Positions 13,011-19,977 of a stretch of 20,000 nucleotides of DNA are shown here, piece by piece. How positions within the stretch are numbered: the stretch's first letter is position 1; each line of letters begins with the position of its first letter. The stretch lies in the IMG/VR virus record IMGVR_UViG_3300020294_000004. One strand, given 5' to 3'. The notes beneath the pieces are model-generated. The model was not told the DNA's origin, searched no databases, and saw nothing but the letters and a program-made list of their open reading frames with translations. The DNA is from an uncultured virus (IMG/VR IMGVR_UViG_3300020294_000004) (taxonomy: Duplodnaviria; Heunggongvirae; Uroviricota; Caudoviricetes; Crassvirales). Both the position numbers and the translations under genes were made by a program.

Positions 13011-15428
13011 CTATTGTGGAGCAAACTGCTCTAAACCAAATCCATCTAAATTATCATTACCAGCACTTTCAAAATTTACAGGTAATGTATCATTTTGTCT
13101 TTGATTTATTAATTCACTCTCTTGAGTTCCTTGCATTTGTACGCGTTTGTCTTTTCTATCTTCTATTTCTGTTTCTTTTTGACGTTTTGTTTGAGATCTC
13201 ATTTCTTCAAGCTGTATGTTATATCTAAATTCTTCAGCCATTAATTGTTTTTTAATTAATGCTTCTTGTTCCATACGTTGTATCTCAAATTGAGATTTTG
13301 CTTGTTCTATTTGAACTTCGGTATCAGCTAATGCTTGGTTTTTTTGTACTTCTGCCATTGCAGCTTTTTCAGCTGACTGTGCATTGGCAGCTGCTTGAGC
13401 TTGTATATTTTCTAATTGTTGTGCTCTGTCTTTTTCTTGCTTTTGTTTTTGCCTTAACTTAAGCATTTGATTAGCAAGTTTAATATTTTTTATTTCTCTT
13501 AAATCTATTGCATCTTCTAAACCTATATTTTTAGCTTGTAATGCAATTTGTATACTTTGTTCTAGTTGAGCTTTTTCTTCTTCATCAGGTTCAAGTTCTA
13601 AAAATATACCAAAATCATGTAAAGATAATTTTTCAACTTCTTCTAATGTTGCTGTATTAAAACCATTTATACTGTTTATTAAAGACTGTTTAGTTGTTGG
13701 AAACTGTAACATATCTGATACTCTTAAACTAATATTTTCACAAACTCTTACAGTTAAATACATTAATGCTTGTAACACATGTCTTGTAGCTGTATTAGAA
13801 TTAGCAGCTGCAAGCTTTTGTAAACCAACTAAAGCATTTTTATCAGGCGTGCTACCATCTCTTGCTTCATTAAGCCCGGTTACATCTCTTATCATTTGTA
13901 AATAATATTGATAAGTTTGTATCATTGACTGTATTTTAGACATGCCTGAAGACGTCTGTAATTCTTGCACCGGTACTTTACCTCTATTTAAATCACCATC
14001 TTGAGTTAAAGATCTTCCTACTACACTACCTGTTTGAAAATACATATTTAACGCTTCAGCAGGATTATAATTTGTACCATTACCTAAATCAACTTCGGCT
14101 AACCCATCAACATCTAAATAAACACCATCAGGTACTAACCTTGATATTACTTGTTGTAGTTTTAAATGAGTTAATTGAATCATATCTGCAAATCCAACTG
14201 TTTTACTTACAATAGATTCTATACGGCCTTGATACATTCTAGGTGAACTAATAACGTAATTCATATTAACTTTAGTCGTATCACCAAAAGGCCTTGTCAT
14301 GTTTTCACTTAATTCCCATTTTAAAAGATTATTACCAAGACCTAAAACTTTAGCTCCAGTATATAATACTTCTATTGATCTTGATATTCTATTAAAGTTA
14401 TCACTAGGTGGTGGATTAAATGTATCTGGTTTTTCTAATGTTTTTTCTAAACCTTGTTCTGTTTGTTTTATTTTAAAAACTTGATCTTGATAAGTTTTAT
14501 ATTCAAAATATAATATTTGTACTTGATCTTTAGTGTCTTGGCCCCACCAAGTGTTTTCTAGATATGTATTTCTACCAGGGTATTTTTGTATTTCTTCTAA
14601 TTCTGAATCTGTTAAATAAGGAAATTGTCTTTTAACTTCTGATAATGACATACTTTTAACCTCACCTACATAATATATATCTTCAAAATTTGGATCATCA
14701 GTATATGAATATACTAAATTAGCTGGATTTACATAATCTATAGTTATTCCTTCAGATAAATTAAAATCAGTTTTAACACAACCTATACCTAAAACAGTTA
14801 GATCGTATGCTAATTGTTTTTTTACTTGATCATATTTATTATAGTCTAAAATATTATTTATAACTTCTTCTTCTGCTATTTCAACACTTTGTTTAAAGTT
14901 TAATTGTAAATAAAGATCTAATTCTTCTGTAGTTCCTGGTAAATCATCTGGTGATGCTGAAGCAAATAAATTAGCATTAGGGCCTAATTGAGCTTGTAAT
15001 GCTTCAATCATTTCTTTATTTTCAATATCTCTTATAGCATTTTGAGCAAATGTAGTTTTATTTTTTATAGCAAATGGATCTTGAGCAAAAGATTTTATTT
15101 CATAACCTTTTTGTGTCATACCATTTACTACTATATCTACAAACTTAGATAATATTGGTACAGGCTTCCAATCTAAATTTAAATAAGATAAATCACCATT
15201 TATAGCTAATTCATCTTTATATTTTTGTACTGGTTGTTCTCCTCTAGCGTAAAGTCTTAGTCTATTAAAATTTTGAAAATTATTAATATATCTATTTTGA
15301 CCACTAGAGTTTTTAAACCACTCATATTCAATTGCTTGGGCTACTTGTAAACCATACTCTTTTGACTTTTTCTCTTCTTCAGGTACCACCTGATCTGGAA
15401 AAGCACTGTTATAGTTAATATTAACCAT
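13011..15428 (-). CDS. Portal protein
   Basis: 805 aa, coupled to terL by a TAATG overlap. LDWKPVPILSKFVDIVVNG, IRDVTGLNEARDGS and a long Q/E/K coiled-coil C-terminal barrel are typical of podoviral/crAss-like portals. Confidence 0.88.
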   Translation of the reverse strand: MVNINYNSAFPDQVVPEEEKKSKEYGLQVAQAIEYEWFKNSSGQNRYINNFQNFNRLRLYARGEQPVQKYKDELAINGDLSYLNLDWKPVPILSKFVDIVVNGMTQKGYEIKSFAQDPFAIKNKTTFAQNAIRDIENKEMIEALQAQLGPNANLFASASPDDLPGTTEELDLYLQLNFKQSVEIAEEEVINNILDYNKYDQVKKQLAYDLTVLGIGCVKTDFNLSEGITIDYVNPANLVYSYTDDPNFEDIYYVGEVKSMSLSEVKRQFPYLTDSELEEIQKYPGRNTYLENTWWGQDTKDQVQILYFEYKTYQDQVFKIKQTEQGLEKTLEKPDTFNPPPSDNFNRISRSIEVLYTGAKVLGLGNNLLKWELSENMTRPFGDTTKVNMNYVISSPRMYQGRIESIVSKTVGFADMIQLTHLKLQQVISRLVPDGVYLDVDGLAEVDLGNGTNYNPAEALNMYFQTGSVVGRSLTQDGDLNRGKVPVQELQTSSGMSKIQSMIQTYQYYLQMIRDVTGLNEARDGSTPDKNALVGLQKLAAANSNTATRHVLQALMYLTVRVCENISLRVSDMLQFPTTKQSLINSINGFNTATLEEVEKLSLHDFGIFLELEPDEEEKAQLEQSIQIALQAKNIGLEDAIDLREIKNIKLANQMLKLRQKQKQEKDRAQQLENIQAQAAANAQSAEKAAMAEVQKNQALADTEVQIEQAKSQFEIQRMEQEALIKKQLMAEEFRYNIQLEEMRSQTKRQKETEIEDRKDKRVQMQGTQESELINQRQNDTLPVNFESAGNDNLDGFGLEQFAPQ

Positions 15429-17650
15429 TAATTTAGTATTTTTGAAGTTACTCCTTTATTATTATACTTTTTAAAGTCTAAAGGTAAATTATTTATAGTT
15501 CTTTTTACTGTTGGTGTATATCTGTTTTTATTACAAGCCATAATAGCTAAGCCAGAACTTATGGAAGCATCGTGTTTAGTTCTATTATTTATATTAAACT
15601 TAGCCCAGTCTTCTAGTGTTCTTTGAAAATACATATCACCATATCTTTCATTATTAAATCCAATAAAATTTTCAATATAATCTTCTATCGCAGCTGCATG
15701 TGCTTGTTTTATATCTTCACTTGAATTAGGTATACCACCTATTTCTCTTTCTGTAACAGATAATTTATTATATACTTTATCAGGACGATTCATAGAATAA
15801 CCTCTATAACCTCTTCTTTTTAAATAATATAATAATCTAGGTTTATTATTTTCTGCAAGTAATGGCATACCATAAAAAACTAAAGCCATTAAAACATCTT
15901 CAAAAAATATTTCTGCTGTTTGAGGTCTTGCAATATATTCTAAAAAAAATAAATTAGGTGGTACATCTTCCATTGAAAACTTAGTTAAACCATGTAAAGA
16001 AGCTTTTGAACCTCTACCATCAACTGTTCCTGAAATATCATATGGATCACAACCAAAAGCACCAGTATGATCGTTACCTGGATATTTAACACCATTTTTT
16101 ATAATATACTTGTTTTGTAAATTATCATTAGGTACCCAAGAAACTAAAAATCTACCATTATTATTAGGAATAAATATAACTCTACTATCTTTAATCCCAT
16201 TTTCCCATTGAAAATTACCTTTTGTAATTACATTTGTATTTCTTAAATCTTCATTATAATCAATTTGTTCATAAATTTTAGTTAGATTAAATAAAGATTG
16301 TTTTGCTTCATCTCTAAAAGCGTGTTTTTCTGTTCTAGGAAATTGTCTATAAAATTCATTTAAACCGTCTTGATCATTTTTTAAACCTTCAACTTCGTTT
16401 TCCCAGTGTGAGATAACGCCAATTTCAATGTTGGATCCGTCAATACTTTTGACCGGTTTTTTTGGAGTTTCGAATACAGGAAACCCATAAGTATTAAGGT
16501 ATCCTTCGTAGTTCCATTCCATAGGTATGAACAAACTATATAATCCTGAATTAGTCTGTCCGTTGCGGTTTCTTTTTGTAACATCTGACGCATCATATAA
16601 TTTTTTAAAATTATTACCTCCTTTATCTAAAGCATTAGATGTAGATCCCATCATACACCTACCTATAATTCTACTACCTAATCTTAGCGTTGTCTTCGTG
16701 ACCCTCCAGTTGTTGAGGATGTTATCTGGCCTCTCCCACTTGCCCGATTCATCGTGTGCGAGGAGTTTGAGTTTCTCCCCGTCGTATGAGTTGTCACCGG
16801 TATTCTTCCAGTCGATCGTGGTATCGAGCCCAACGAGTTCCTCGGGACGTTCATTCTGATCGATCTTACGCCTTGTGAACTTCGACGCGGGTACACGATA
16901 TGCAAGTTCCGTTTTGGGACGATCCATACCGTCCTGTATCGGTTTAAAAAAGAATGGGTAATTAACGGATATTGGTACCACTTTGTCTGTAAACATTTTC
17001 TTCGCATCTGCTCCAGTCTTTGATAATATCCCGTACCGTGAATCACTAGATATTGTTGCCTGGTGTACGAGTTCTGATGAGGCCATAAAAGAAAATCCCG
17101 ATCTTCTATTCTTGAGATAGCACATTCCATAGGATCTGGTATCAAGTTTACAGGCTTCCCAAAATATGAAAAAGATTCTATTGGCTTCTCTGAATTCCGC
17201 GTTGCCAACATCAATTTTTGTCCACTGCAAGTACATATAATGAGACCCAGTAATATAGCTAGGAATACCTTTGTTATAGAAACAAAAGCCTTCTTCACGT
17301 CTTTTAAACTCTTCGTCAATATAATCATACCAAGTATTTTTAAAATCTAATGATGTTTGGTTCCAATCAAAAACTGTTTTAAGTTTTGATAATTGTTTTG
17401 GGTACTCAAATATTTCCCAATATTGATCTGTTTTATTTACAGATCTTTTATATACATTTTCACTTAAAGGTAAAGCTATTTTTAAACCCTGTATTTCATA
17501 TATTTCACCTATTTTACCTGTTTTACTTATAACAACTACATCGTGTTCTTTGTTATAACCTGGTTCCCATTTTTTATACCTATTATTATTTTTTATAATT
17601 TTAGGTTTTATATGATTAGGTAAAATTTTATATAAAGTGTTTGTATACAT
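15428..17650 (-). CDS. terL: Terminase large subunit
   Basis: 740 aa. Walker A variant LKNRRSGFS, Walker B LLAHDESGK, coupling motif GSTSN, nuclease motifs GAFGCDPYD and HDASISSG. Directly upstream of the portal. Confidence 0.93.
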   Translation of the reverse strand: MYTNTLYKILPNHIKPKIIKNNNRYKKWEPGYNKEHDVVVISKTGKIGEIYEIQGLKIALPLSENVYKRSVNKTDQYWEIFEYPKQLSKLKTVFDWNQTSLDFKNTWYDYIDEEFKRREEGFCFYNKGIPSYITGSHYMYLQWTKIDVGNAEFREANRIFFIFWEACKLDTRSYGMCYLKNRRSGFSFMASSELVHQATISSDSRYGILSKTGADAKKMFTDKVVPISVNYPFFFKPIQDGMDRPKTELAYRVPASKFTRRKIDQNERPEELVGLDTTIDWKNTGDNSYDGEKLKLLAHDESGKWERPDNILNNWRVTKTTLRLGSRIIGRCMMGSTSNALDKGGNNFKKLYDASDVTKRNRNGQTNSGLYSLFIPMEWNYEGYLNTYGFPVFETPKKPVKSIDGSNIEIGVISHWENEVEGLKNDQDGLNEFYRQFPRTEKHAFRDEAKQSLFNLTKIYEQIDYNEDLRNTNVITKGNFQWENGIKDSRVIFIPNNNGRFLVSWVPNDNLQNKYIIKNGVKYPGNDHTGAFGCDPYDISGTVDGRGSKASLHGLTKFSMEDVPPNLFFLEYIARPQTAEIFFEDVLMALVFYGMPLLAENNKPRLLYYLKRRGYRGYSMNRPDKVYNKLSVTEREIGGIPNSSEDIKQAHAAAIEDYIENFIGFNNERYGDMYFQRTLEDWAKFNINNRTKHDASISSGLAIMACNKNRYTPTVKRTINNLPLDFKKYNNKGVTSKILN
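16381..16596 (-). CDS. Possible second overprinted ORF in terL (+1 frame, 71 aa)
   Basis: ORF track. Same frame as 16684-17328. GC is 66/180 at 16381-16560 versus 25/120 at 16201-16320. No recognisable motif. Confidence 0.35.
   Translation of the reverse strand: MMRQMLQKETATDRLIQDYIVCSYLWNGTTKDTLILMGFLYSKLQKNRSKVLTDPTLKLALSHTGKTKLKV
16684..17328 (-). CDS. Putative overprinted lipoprotein/membrane-anchored protein (+1 frame within the terL ATPase domain, 214 aa; alternative GTG start at 17298)
   Basis: 214 stop-free codons in the +1 frame of an AT-rich gene. Basic N-region, hydrophobic VFLAILLGLII, then CTC-SG (Cys32/Cys34). R/S/T/G-rich tail. GC is 94/180 at 16741-16920 and collapses right after its stop. 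Confidence 0.6.
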   Translation of the reverse strand: MIILTKSLKDVKKAFVSITKVFLAILLGLIICTCSGQKLMLATRNSEKPIESFSYFGKPVNLIPDPMECAISRIEDRDFLLWPHQNSYTRQQYLVIHGTGYYQRLEQMRRKCLQTKWYQYPLITHSFLNRYRTVWIVPKRNLHIVYPRRSSQGVRSIRMNVPRNSLGSIPRSTGRIPVTTHTTGRNSNSSHTMNRASGRGQITSSTTGGSRRQR

Positions 17651-17922
17651 TATCTAGATCTTCCTTCAGCAAAACCTCCAAAATTAGAAGCTTTAGTATT
17701 TTTATTAATAGAATTAATTATATTTTCTTCTTCTTCAATTCTTGATAGTATTTCAAAAGCATCAAATATAGCTAATTTTTTTGTAGCAGCAGCGTTTTTT
17801 AATCTGTCAGCTGATACATCATCTTCTGAATCTACAATTTTTTCTTTAGCTACTTTTATTAATTCTTCAACTGCTTTTTGCCCAGCTTGGATTATACGTT
17901 TTTTGGTTTTGTTTATTTCCAT
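17650..17922 (-). CDS. Probable terminase small subunit (90 aa)
   Basis: Small helical protein coupled to terL by TAATG at 17650. The start is revised from the ORF-track 18009 to ATG 17922 (MEINKTKKRIIQAG). Function is assigned by position and size only. Confidence 0.5.
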   Translation of the reverse strand: MEINKTKKRIIQAGQKAVEELIKVAKEKIVDSEDDVSADRLKNAAATKKLAIFDAFEILSRIEEEENIINSINKNTKASNFGGFAEGRSR

Positions 17923-18469
17923 ATTTAAATAAAATATCATTTGATTCCATACAGTATAAAAGTTCATTATCAATAACAAACTCAAATTCTCTATTACTTT
18001 TAAACCCAACTAGATCTCCTGTGTTAATTTTAAGGGCTTCTAACGTGCTGTTTGTATATTTTAATACTCCAGTATTTTTTATTAATTTGGTATCTTTATA
18101 TACATCTTTTTCTAATACTGGTTTTACAAAACAATAATCTGCGTTTGTTTTCCACCCTTTTTTATAATACATATAAATTTGAGATGGATGTGCAAAATAT
18201 AAATTGTCTTTAAAAAACTTAGTACTATTTACTGATTTGCCTTTTAAATTATAATACCTTCTAAATAAATTATGATGTACTATAACTTTGTCACCTTTTT
18301 TTATATTTGTTTTATAAGCAAGAGGTGCAGCAACTATTTCAGCATGTCTATTTATAAATTTATGATTTGATATACTTGAGTTAAGTATAAGTTCTGTGTT
18401 GTTGATTTTTAATTTATTATTATATCTTTCACCTATAGGTTTTATAATAAATTGATATATACTATTCAT
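17867..18469 (-). CDS. GroES/Cpn10-like co-chaperonin with two tandem domains
   Basis: 200 aa with two GroES-like units: FIIKP...AEIVAAP...IKKGDKVIV and YCFVKP...TGVLKY...INTGDLVGF..EFEFVIDNELLYCMESNDIL. Compare GroES vkvGDkVlf..gtevkidgeeylilresDIL. Confidence 0.65.
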   Translation of the reverse strand: MNSIYQFIIKPIGERYNNKLKINNTELILNSSISNHKFINRHAEIVAAPLAYKTNIKKGDKVIVHHNLFRRYYNLKGKSVNSTKFFKDNLYFAHPSQIYMYYKKGWKTNADYCFVKPVLEKDVYKDTKLIKNTGVLKYTNSTLEALKINTGDLVGFKSNREFEFVIDNELLYCMESNDILFKYGNKQNQKTYNPSWAKSS

Positions 18470-19596: not shown

Positions 19597-19977
19597 TTAT
19601 TTTACTTTGTCTTTTATTTTTTCATAAGTTCTAAGTCCACCTAATCCTAACATACCTAATAGTACAGTCATTAAATGTTCCATTTGTAGTGGTGGTGGTA
19701 CGTCTGTTGATTTTGTAATCCATATAAATAAATCACGAATAACAAAATTATATGCTAAAGCAAAACCACATATCCAACCTACAAAAGGTCGCCACCCTGC
19801 AACAAATAAAGTTCTATGCGAGGCTTCAACCATATTAATTTTTGTTTGTAATTCTATTAGTTTTTCTGGATCAAGCTCTTTACCTTTAATGGCTTCTCTT
19901 ATTTCCCAAGCTAAACCTCCAGCGACAGATTTTCTACCATCACCTCCTTTAAGAAGACCTAGTAGTAATTTCCACAT
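19597..19977 (-). CDS. Holin, 3-TM GTA-type family (GTA_holin_3TM-like)
   Basis: Signature INMVEASHRTLFVAGWRPFVGWICG and C-terminal LLGMLGLGGLRTYEK, with hydrophobic segments. Confidence 0.8.
   Translation of the reverse strand: MWKLLLGLLKGGDGRKSVAGGLAWEIREAIKGKELDPEKLIELQTKINMVEASHRTLFVAGWRPFVGWICGFALAYNFVIRDLFIWITKSTDVPPPLQMEHLMTVLLGMLGLGGLRTYEKIKDKVK

Follow-up and report, generated by a model that had tools for sequence, protein, structure and literature searches.

An open reading frame maintained by selection inside the large terminase gene of uncultured marine phages probably encodes an overprinted protein

The gene for the large terminase subunit (terL) of an uncultured tailed phage, represented by the IMG/VR record IMGVR_UViG_3300020294_000004, contains in its +1 frame a second open reading frame (ORF) of 214 codons, which is open far beyond chance, conserved among related phages and under selection. 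Selection at synonymous sites of terL steers this nested frame toward a protein that carries a hydrophobic segment and a conserved Cys near its N-terminus and continues as a disordered, strongly cationic stretch of about 120-180 residues. It is very likely that the ORF is a selected coding gene, and the fuller reading, in which a real protein-coding gene was overprinted on terL and arose de novo in one clade of marine phages, is also probable. Targeting of the product to the cell envelope, as judged from its predicted features, has about an even chance of being right, and any one named role that might be proposed for it is unlikely. Positions given below refer to the window, which is the whole stretch of 20,000 nucleotides analyzed here and forms part of a 37-kb phage record, and features in it lie on the minus strand, unless otherwise indicated.

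The host gene terL occupies 15428..17650 and encodes a protein of 740 amino acids (phrog_6681, E 5.5e-162). The initial annotation of this DNA had drawn attention to a 214-aa ORF inside it, and the list of ORFs places this frame, from its ATG through 214 codons to a TAA, at 16684..17328, where it spans TerL codons 108-322; its offset to terL is 322 nt and the frame is therefore +1. The N-terminus of the ORF (MIILTKSLKDVKKAFVSITKVFLAILLGLIICTCSGQK), an alternative GTG at 17298, the R/S/T/G-rich tail and the terL codon run ATC CTC AAC AAC TGG AGG GTC ACG were all seen in the sequence as that annotation had described them. The TerL motifs KNRRSGFS and AHDESGK were also confirmed to be inside the ORF span; KNRRSGFS, which had been termed Walker A, lies at 17090..17113, and LLAHDE, termed Walker B, at 16748..16765. 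The ATG (17326..17328) is made by the TerL codons W-Y-D (tgG TAT Gat), and the last upstream stop in frame +1 is a TAG at TerL codon 101 (17347..17349). At the other end, a cluster of five +1 stops at TerL codons 322, 324, 329, 333 and 341 (16629..16686) closes the ORF, four of them, as had been noted before, soon after the embedded TAA. The distribution of +1 stops in terL is thus very uneven, with 10 in codons 1-107, none in codons 108-321, and 30 in codons 322-740, five of which fall within 20 codons starting at the ORF's own TAA. Base composition changes here as well: GC content is 0.46-0.47 at 16600-17049 and 0.24-0.30 in the flanks, and GC content at third codon positions (GC3) is 0.57 in terL codons 241-330 versus 0.09 in the remaining gene. 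The GC3-rich patch in terL codons 241-322 (16685..16930) encodes the polar cationic tail of the ORF.

The distribution of the nested frame was analyzed in two samples of related phages. The first comprised 80 related terL loci from viral contigs with 74-91% protein identity (81 sequences with the window), whose codons were threaded onto a protein alignment, and the second comprised 28 further terL genes obtained with a different query; together, 108 of more than 600 matching IMG/VR stretches and the window (109 sequences) were examined. Sequences were considered as ORF-bearing when their +1 frame contained 150 or more stop-free codons in a row at this position of terL. Such a frame was found in 60 of 81 sequences of the first sample, in 13 of 28 of the second (the other 15 had no ORF), and in 73 of 109 overall. 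Interruption of the +1 frame in close homologues, which the initial annotation had named as evidence that would speak against a gene, was not observed, as the frame is open in the eight closest sequences (the window and L001-L007, the contig of L007 beginning at TerL codon 114). In the first sample, the ORF ends at TerL codon 263 (8 sequences), 269 (2), 272 (2), 294 (16), 317 (3), 322 (20) or 324 (9), with a length of 155-219 aa across the family, and the remaining 21 sequences have no ORF and contain 8-17 +1 stops in the region. Five cultured outgroup phages have 10-17 +1 stops in the same region and no regional rise of GC3. Among ORF-bearing sequences the median synonymous third-position difference is 0.46, with saturation at 0.57, and these sequences represent at least 29 lineages separated by more than 0.30 at synonymous third positions; given such near-saturated synonymous sites, the open frame has been maintained many times over.

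The beginning of the ORF is also preserved. The ATG is at TerL codon 108 in 52 of the 60 ORF-bearing sequences, and in 58 of them an ATG comes after the last upstream +1 stop and ahead of the hydrophobic segment, the two exceptions being one contig that begins inside the gene and one sequence with TTG only. The last upstream +1 stop is variable in position (TerL codons 56-113), and in relatives with a +1 stop at codon 111 an ATG comes directly at codon 112. The gene is dispensable, since it is absent or decayed in about one third of relatives, and it is restricted to a single clade of uncultured marine phages; the cultured relatives of this clade have Bacteroidota as hosts. Relatives without the ORF share neighbouring genes with ORF-bearing ones.

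Codon-permutation tests of ORF length are said to be able to detect overprinted genes (PMC6188560). When synonymous codons were permuted over the whole region, with the TerL protein and regional codon usage held, the shuffled sequences contained 4-8 +1 stops, whereas the natural ones have none, a difference with P <= 0.0025 in each of the 11 full-length sequences tested. Five truncated forms also showed depletion of stops or an over-long open stretch. By contrast with these, three of four ORF-lacking sequences were not depleted; the ORF-lacking sequence L008 had fewer stops than its shuffled versions (P 0.01), but its open stretch was not over-long (P 0.09). A stricter shuffle, in which synonymous codons were permuted only inside blocks of 54 codons, was applied to 27 full-length sequences and gave a summed expectation of 79.3 +1 stops against 0 observed, with individual significance (P < 0.05) in 21 sequences. 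Stops were not depleted in the other four alternative frames (observed/expected 549/493, 179/179, 266/275 and 438/401). The avoidance depends on codon context as well. Inside the ORF, Leu, Ile and Val codons ending in A were found in only 1 of 815 cases before a codon starting with A or G, where TAA or TAG would arise in frame +1, whereas they were found in 387 of 716 cases (54%) before a codon starting with C or T, where they are harmless. Outside the ORF or in ORF-lacking sequences, the two contexts differ little (55-61% versus 64-72% A-ending). Stop avoidance is hence both frame-specific and codon-context-dependent.

Other open stretches occur in this part of terL. TerL codons 341-423 (about 16380-16629) form a second stop-free +1 stretch of 82 codons, which is also the longest open +1 run in many relatives without the nested gene; because it is shared with these relatives, its openness is probably imposed by the TerL sequence. 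An antisense ORF of 110 aa at 16527-16859 on the plus strand, inside the GC-rich patch, was considered as a gene and rejected, as antisense frames show no stop depletion, and it is probably a by-product of composition.

Codon choice in terL reveals not only where stops are avoided but also which residues of the second protein are favored. At NCN codons of terL, a third-position T yields Leu in frame +1. In the hydrophobic segment all such codons of ORF-bearing sequences end in T (219/219, 100%), compared with 68% in sequences without the ORF, whereas the relation is reversed in the middle of the ORF (19% versus 46%) and in the tail (3% versus 37%); in the flanks of terL the proportion is 46-64% in both groups. 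A similar choice was detected around Cys34 of the nested product, whose codon (17227..17229) derives from TerL Leu141 written as TTG or CTG. This Leu is encoded by NTG in 59 of 59 ORF-bearing sequences but in only 3 of 19 without the ORF, 13 of which use TTA and would have Tyr in frame +1; neither choice creates a stop. Likewise, TerL Tyr140 is TAC in 55 of 59 ORF-bearing versus 4 of 19 ORF-lacking sequences, and TerL Thr134 is ACT in 59 of 59 versus 11 of 19. The free third positions in the hydrophobic stretch are thus fixed toward keeping Leu and Cys.

The product predicted from the window has a mass of 24.7 kDa and a pI of 10.97. Its N-flank is Lys-rich (net charge +4 in residues 1-21) and is followed by the hydrophobic segment with CTCSG (residues 21-36, 17221..17268), a candidate signal-peptide h/c-region or membrane anchor. 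Only one hydrophobic segment is present, with a maximum Kyte-Doolittle 19-residue mean of 2.5 and a core of about 12-14 residues; the three highest-scoring 19-residue stretches all fall within residues 14-34, and the remaining blocks of the protein are polar and charged. C32 and C34 are invariant in 49 of 49 aligned ORF proteins. The net charge is about +1 over the 25-30 residues after the hydrophobic segment, and the tail then becomes increasingly cationic and rich in S/T/P/G/Q/N, with a net charge of +21 in the window product (family means: tail charge +18, pI about 10.8). An AlphaFold model based on the 49-sequence alignment contains a helix at residues 2-43 (pLDDT 52-76), and pLDDT is below 50 from residue 36 onward; the mean over the whole model is 41.7. 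The charge around the short hydrophobic core and the small residues after it look like a Sec signal peptide or a signal-anchor, which would leave the C-terminus outside.

A profile search of 1.84 billion representative proteins gave 156 matches, which are the same nested ORF as called by gene finders in metagenomes; among the 150 matches listed none exceeds 374 aa, and nine matched clusters that were looked up are unnamed or 'hypothetical protein'. In the ESM Atlas the nearest clusters are unnamed or auto-named 'putative Lipoprotein', with low recognition, and this label can serve as a lead only. Four metagenomic gene calls (P0014, P0015, P0032 and P0033) switch between the TerL and the nested frame, in either order, and these fusions imply single-base indels in those contigs, resulting from assembly errors or defective variants.

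Several observations weigh against a coding gene of this kind and should be considered together. The ORF is missing from 36 of 109 relatives; no compensating gene was found within 10 kb, where the lowest p value was 0.057 when 32 neighbour clusters were compared with ORF status. The block shuffle taken alone was not significant in 6 of 27 sequences (P 0.08-0.40). The initial annotation had rightly cautioned that the hydrophobic stretch is partly dictated by TerL; much of it follows from TerL YITGSHYMYLQW, and Cys32 is forced by the TerL sequence too. No family match was obtained for the nested ORF in Pfam (best E 0.075, below the cutoff) or PHROGs (best E 0.18), and profile searches against NCBIfam, PADLOC and PDB gave no significant match and no fold. 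The topology and function suggested for the product are inferred from its composition only. Logan contigs from RNA-labelled libraries of two marine studies gave short near-identical matches to parts of terL including the ORF, but such contigs carry no strand, start or frame information and may reflect DNA carry-over. With regard to promoters, TAnnTTTG, the Bacteroidota -7 promoter motif, was found within 200 nt upstream in 24 of 58 ORF-bearing and 11 of 17 ORF-lacking sequences, so that no ORF-specific motif was identified, and third positions upstream of the ORF were not better conserved in sequences that bear it; the terL mRNA would therefore serve as the template for translation. Conservation within the ORF is limited as well. 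The ORF proteins are only 35-53% identical to that of the window, whereas TerL is about 90% or more conserved here, and the ratio of third-position divergence inside to outside the overlap is 1.23 in 465 ORF-bearing pairs and 1.00 in 190 ORF-lacking pairs. A reduced synonymous rate in the overlap, a possible mark of a second coding frame, was thus not seen. This comparison is weak, because of near-saturated sites and unequal base composition, and it speaks neither for nor against purifying selection on sequence. Per-column codon entropy is barely lower in ORF-bearing sequences (0.73 versus 0.81 for the same columns in ORF-lacking ones), so that the constraint on most of the second protein concerns its composition rather than its sequence. 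Beyond the first 40 residues, what seems to be selected is an open frame and a polar, non-hydrophobic, cationic composition. Such a composition-level pattern is reported for young overprinted proteins (PMC6195259, bioRxiv 10.1101/229690).

The history of the region is complicated by recombination. Sister sequences on a tree of the flanks can be 88-95% identical in the 3' half of terL and 65-80% in the 5' half, and sharp identity shifts between sisters were detected in four pairs (L056/L066, L058/L068, L030/L035 and L027/L046), for example from 96% at the ends to 75-82% in the middle; these patterns point to recombination breakpoints inside terL, a standard phage marker gene. ORF status requires at least seven changes on the flank tree and at least three on the region tree (both built by FastTree, the region tree being poorly resolved). 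A single origin of the ORF was considered and rejected, as its status is scattered on both trees, and gains and losses cannot be ordered because of recombination within terL. The ORF-bearing segment has been spread among lineages and removed from them by recombination, by loss, or by the two together. GC3 follows the ORF forms, and the compositional footprint of each form ends at its own stop codon: it is 0.34-0.35 inside the ORF and 0.20 after the stop in the class ending at codon 263, 0.40/0.44/0.65 and 0.26 in the class ending at 294, and 0.36/0.45/0.65/0.68 and 0.29 in the classes ending at 322/324. As a side observation, L037 and L048, which form one lineage, have a +1 frame open to codon 317, a GC3 of only 0.26-0.28 in codons 241-330 and a more hydrophobic tail (TerL codons 264-317); they may represent a recent extension lacking compositional adjustment, or a recombinant.

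It is possible to read these data without any second protein, if a GC-richer segment of the terL ATPase was spread by recombination and the frame is open simply as GC-rich DNA contains few stops. The initial annotation had raised the related idea of an imported GC-rich module, and the part of it concerning mosaicism stands: terL is a mosaic gene in which the 5' and 3' halves of sister pairs diverge to very different degrees, ORF status changes repeatedly on both trees, and GC3 and openness of the frame go together, while the overlap shows no reduced synonymous divergence and the product is predicted to be disordered. The fall of GC3 at the stop of each class is expected under both readings and therefore adds nothing alone. 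However, an imported module cannot explain frame-specific, context-dependent codon choice. Stops are depleted in frame +1 and in none of the four other alternative frames, A-ending codons disappear only in positions that would turn them into a +1 stop, and the bias in T-ending codons is reversed within 600 nt, from fixation in the hydrophobic segment to avoidance in the tail; in addition, L054 and L055 are GC3-rich in the region (0.46-0.67) yet contain 11-12 +1 stops, and shuffles that hold regional codon usage still reject chance. An untranslated by-product is accordingly quite improbable. Programmed +1 ribosomal frameshifting, which would fuse the TerL N-terminus (about 100-125 residues) to the +1 frame, could be suspected as the frame is open up to about 50 codons upstream of the ATG in some relatives, a T-run (GGT TTT TGG) precedes the hydrophobic segment, and metagenomic calls fusing the TerL N-terminus to the ORF exist (P0014, P0033). 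Against it, the ATG is kept in 58 of 60 sequences and reappears at codon 112 where a stop is found at 111, upstream +1 stops vary in position and can be as far along as codon 113, the T-run follows from TerL residues F-W and is found equally in ORF-lacking sequences, and the fusions are DNA-level indels and so not evidence of ribosomal slippage; this explanation is hardly credible.

If the nested gene is real, what its product does is another matter. The initial annotation had proposed a spanin-like outer-membrane lipoprotein cleaved by signal peptidase II, like Rz1 in Rz, and several features of the product agree with a lipoprotein: a basic n-region, a hydrophobic h-region and an invariant Cys are all found in the ORF proteins, Cys34 is kept by codon choice in 59 of 59 sequences with Thr rather than Ile ahead of it in 55, a polar region without predicted structure follows, one of the three nearest Atlas clusters is auto-named 'putative Lipoprotein' (0.92), and late co-expression with terL is plausible for a lipoprotein or spanin. 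The canonical lipobox pattern is [LVI][ASTVI][GAS]C. It is absent from all 49 ORF proteins, in which the Cys contexts are L-[IT]-[IT]-C-[TI]-C-[SN]-G with Thr or Ile at position -1, whereas it does match a lipoprotein candidate located beside the endolysin gene. The architecture of a unimolecular spanin (u-spanin) was not found, as there is a single N-terminal hydrophobic segment, no second one and no lipobox; nor does the ORF have the placement of an outer-membrane spanin (o-spanin) next to an inner-membrane spanin (i-spanin) gene in a lysis cassette, its host gene being terL. Moreover, the same genome has an LSSC lipoprotein directly after the endolysin and a two-segment membrane protein 1.3 kb upstream of it, and the ORF is absent from a third of relatives with the same neighbouring genes. 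The proposal is thus not supported, and a signal peptidase II-processed spanin is unlikely. Selection on Cys34 argues that a Cys matters in the mature protein, and an atypical lipoprotein is possible. A cytoplasmic polycation that binds nucleic acids (for DNA condensation or packaging, or RNA binding) and uses its hydrophobic N-terminus for oligomerisation would fit the tail charge and pI, the content of 46% S/T/P/G/Q/N, the RS/RG-like C-terminus and a coding position inside a packaging gene, whose expression would supply it during DNA packaging. On the other hand, codon-level upkeep of a Leu-rich segment with Lys on its N-side and about +1 after it fits export or anchoring, and the phage already has three small very basic proteins elsewhere, which make this role unlikely.

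For an overprinted gene with an exported product, the following scheme may be considered. The nested ORF would be translated from late terL mRNA by internal initiation at the W-Y-D ATG, and its Lys-rich N-flank and short hydrophobic core would act as a Sec signal or signal-anchor with the N-terminus in and the C-terminus out. The cationic disordered region would thereby be placed at the envelope and act late in infection, perhaps as an aid to lysis, by destabilising the outer membrane, or by masking the cell surface against adsorption of further phages. The gene has since been truncated, extended, lost and recombined, and it ends at several alternative stops.

Some of these features are known from other overprinted phage genes. 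Gene E of PhiX174 is likewise overprinted inside an essential morphogenesis gene, the scaffold gene D; like the nested product, E carries its membrane segment at the N-terminus, ahead of a basic C-terminal part with little structure, and its late expression from the mRNA of the host gene is the same as proposed here. However, E has 91 aa and is the sole lysis protein of a 5-kb ssDNA phage, whereas the phage studied here has a large dsDNA genome with holin and endolysin genes, and its nested gene is dispensable in nature. Lambda Rz1, embedded in Rz (the spanin pair; compare PMC5295617), is, like the nested ORF, a whole gene in the +1 frame of a longer same-strand phage gene. Both Rz1 and the nested product combine an N-terminal export signal with a polar region poor in secondary structure, which is a prediction in the case of the ORF. 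Rz1 is about 60 aa long, has a canonical lipobox and lies inside the gene of its functional partner in the lysis cassette, unlike the nested ORF, which encodes 155-219 aa without a lipobox (0/49) and lies over the terminase ATPase core far from the endolysin. A further comparison is with the 'disruptin' gp28 of phage phiKT, a cationic peptide that breaks up the outer membrane during lysis and can replace spanins (bioRxiv 10.1101/515445). Like the nested product, gp28 is strongly cationic and without homologues; both could act on anionic envelope lipids, and gp28 illustrates that lysis accessories need not look like spanins. It is a 56-aa protein with a predicted amphipathic helix from a free-standing gene, and the abstract mentions no signal sequence; the nested product is about four times longer (214 aa), has an N-terminal hydrophobic segment and a cationic part predicted to be disordered, and thus lacks the short cationic amphipathic helix of a disruptin. 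A lysis-accessory role for the nested product is possible.

More generally, the younger member of overprinted viral pairs is reported to be lineage-restricted, compositionally biased and disorder-rich (PMC8227390, PMC6195259, bioRxiv 10.1101/229690). The present case differs from general cases of overprinting in that the overlap covers the ATPase motifs and that absent, short, medium and full forms coexist naturally. Searches of the open-access literature revealed no earlier account of a large terminase gene with another gene nested inside it. The kind of gene arrangement is known, but its place, its length and the series of forms seen across populations are out of the ordinary, and the open-access literature searched yielded no description of the protein family.

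Analysis of the surrounding genes provides a context for the lysis question. In the window, the minus-strand order is holin, several small genes, terL, portal (13011-15428) and virion genes. The presence of a holin gene about 2.3 kb upstream of the ORF, as previously suggested, was confirmed at 19597..19977 (phrog_3427, E 7e-26; PF11351, E 8e-10), and it lies upstream of the packaging genes. The endolysin gene was located at 10255-10620 of contig L087 (G000 30255-30620). Since the holin is at the contig start and the endolysin about 30 kb away past the virion module, the lysis genes are not in one cassette. The earlier statement that no spanin is recognizable holds for the window but probably not for the whole phage. 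Directly after the endolysin, a 92-aa ORF (L087 10631-10909; G000 30631-30909) with an MKK start, a hydrophobic core and the lipobox LSSC was detected; it has no PHROG match and is a candidate for the outer-membrane lipoprotein or o-spanin of the phage. At L087 8926-9339, 1.3 kb upstream of this lipoprotein gene, a 137-aa protein with two strong hydrophobic segments, a charged stretch that appears helix-like by eye and a C-terminal end rich in Cys (CTCGKESCKCEGK) may represent another membrane protein near the endolysin, of either holin type or i-spanin type. These two proteins are better candidates for spanin or holin-type functions than the nested ORF. Three small, very basic, K/R/G/S-rich ORFs (L087 9342-9626, 9574-9771 and 9890-10270) stand in a row before the endolysin; they resemble disordered polycations and have only weak PHROG matches to families of unknown function.

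With TerL as query, tblastn retrieved 87 phage records, each with a query coverage of 80% or more. Among cultured phages, those of Flavobacterium, Cellulophaga, Maribacter and Tenacibaculum have the nearest relatives of TerL (32-45% identity), and the TerL of an uncultured podophage is 62% identical to that of the window. A virion protein at 318-1790 contains a crAss muzzle-protein C-terminal domain (PF25729, E 4e-12), which ties the tail module to crAss-like phages, whereas TerL groups with Flavobacteriia podophages. Immediately upstream of terL, a 119-aa ORF at 17650-18009 without a family match ends at the base where terL begins, and by position it is a candidate small terminase subunit; its true start is probably an internal ATG, because the listed TTG start overlaps a GroES-like gene.

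In tiny ssDNA and RNA phages, long genes nested on the same strand are a textbook feature; in large dsDNA phages they are known chiefly within lysis genes, and they are discarded by annotation pipelines. The terL gene is the most conserved phage gene and a standard phylogenetic marker for tailed phages. It is conceivable, although no more than a tentative suggestion, that a gene is being observed here in the course of its origin, within the catalytic core of an essential enzyme, with forms that are absent or end at codons 263, 294 and 317-324. If these forms are successive 3' extensions followed by codon polishing, they would be a stepwise record of how an exported, disordered, cationic protein was built on top of an ATPase while the enzyme stayed intact, and the product, if this were true, would represent a new class of late phage envelope effector. 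The locus offers a natural system for studying de novo gene birth and the limits of using the synonymous sites of an essential enzyme, with dozens of independent natural lineages and with internal controls in the form of relatives without the gene and other reading frames. It is also a warning that a marker such as terL can carry a strong non-neutral synonymous signal and internal recombination. Finally, the nested ORF adds a new, previously unannotated phage protein family, probably envelope-directed to judge from its predicted features, which is abundant in marine viromes.

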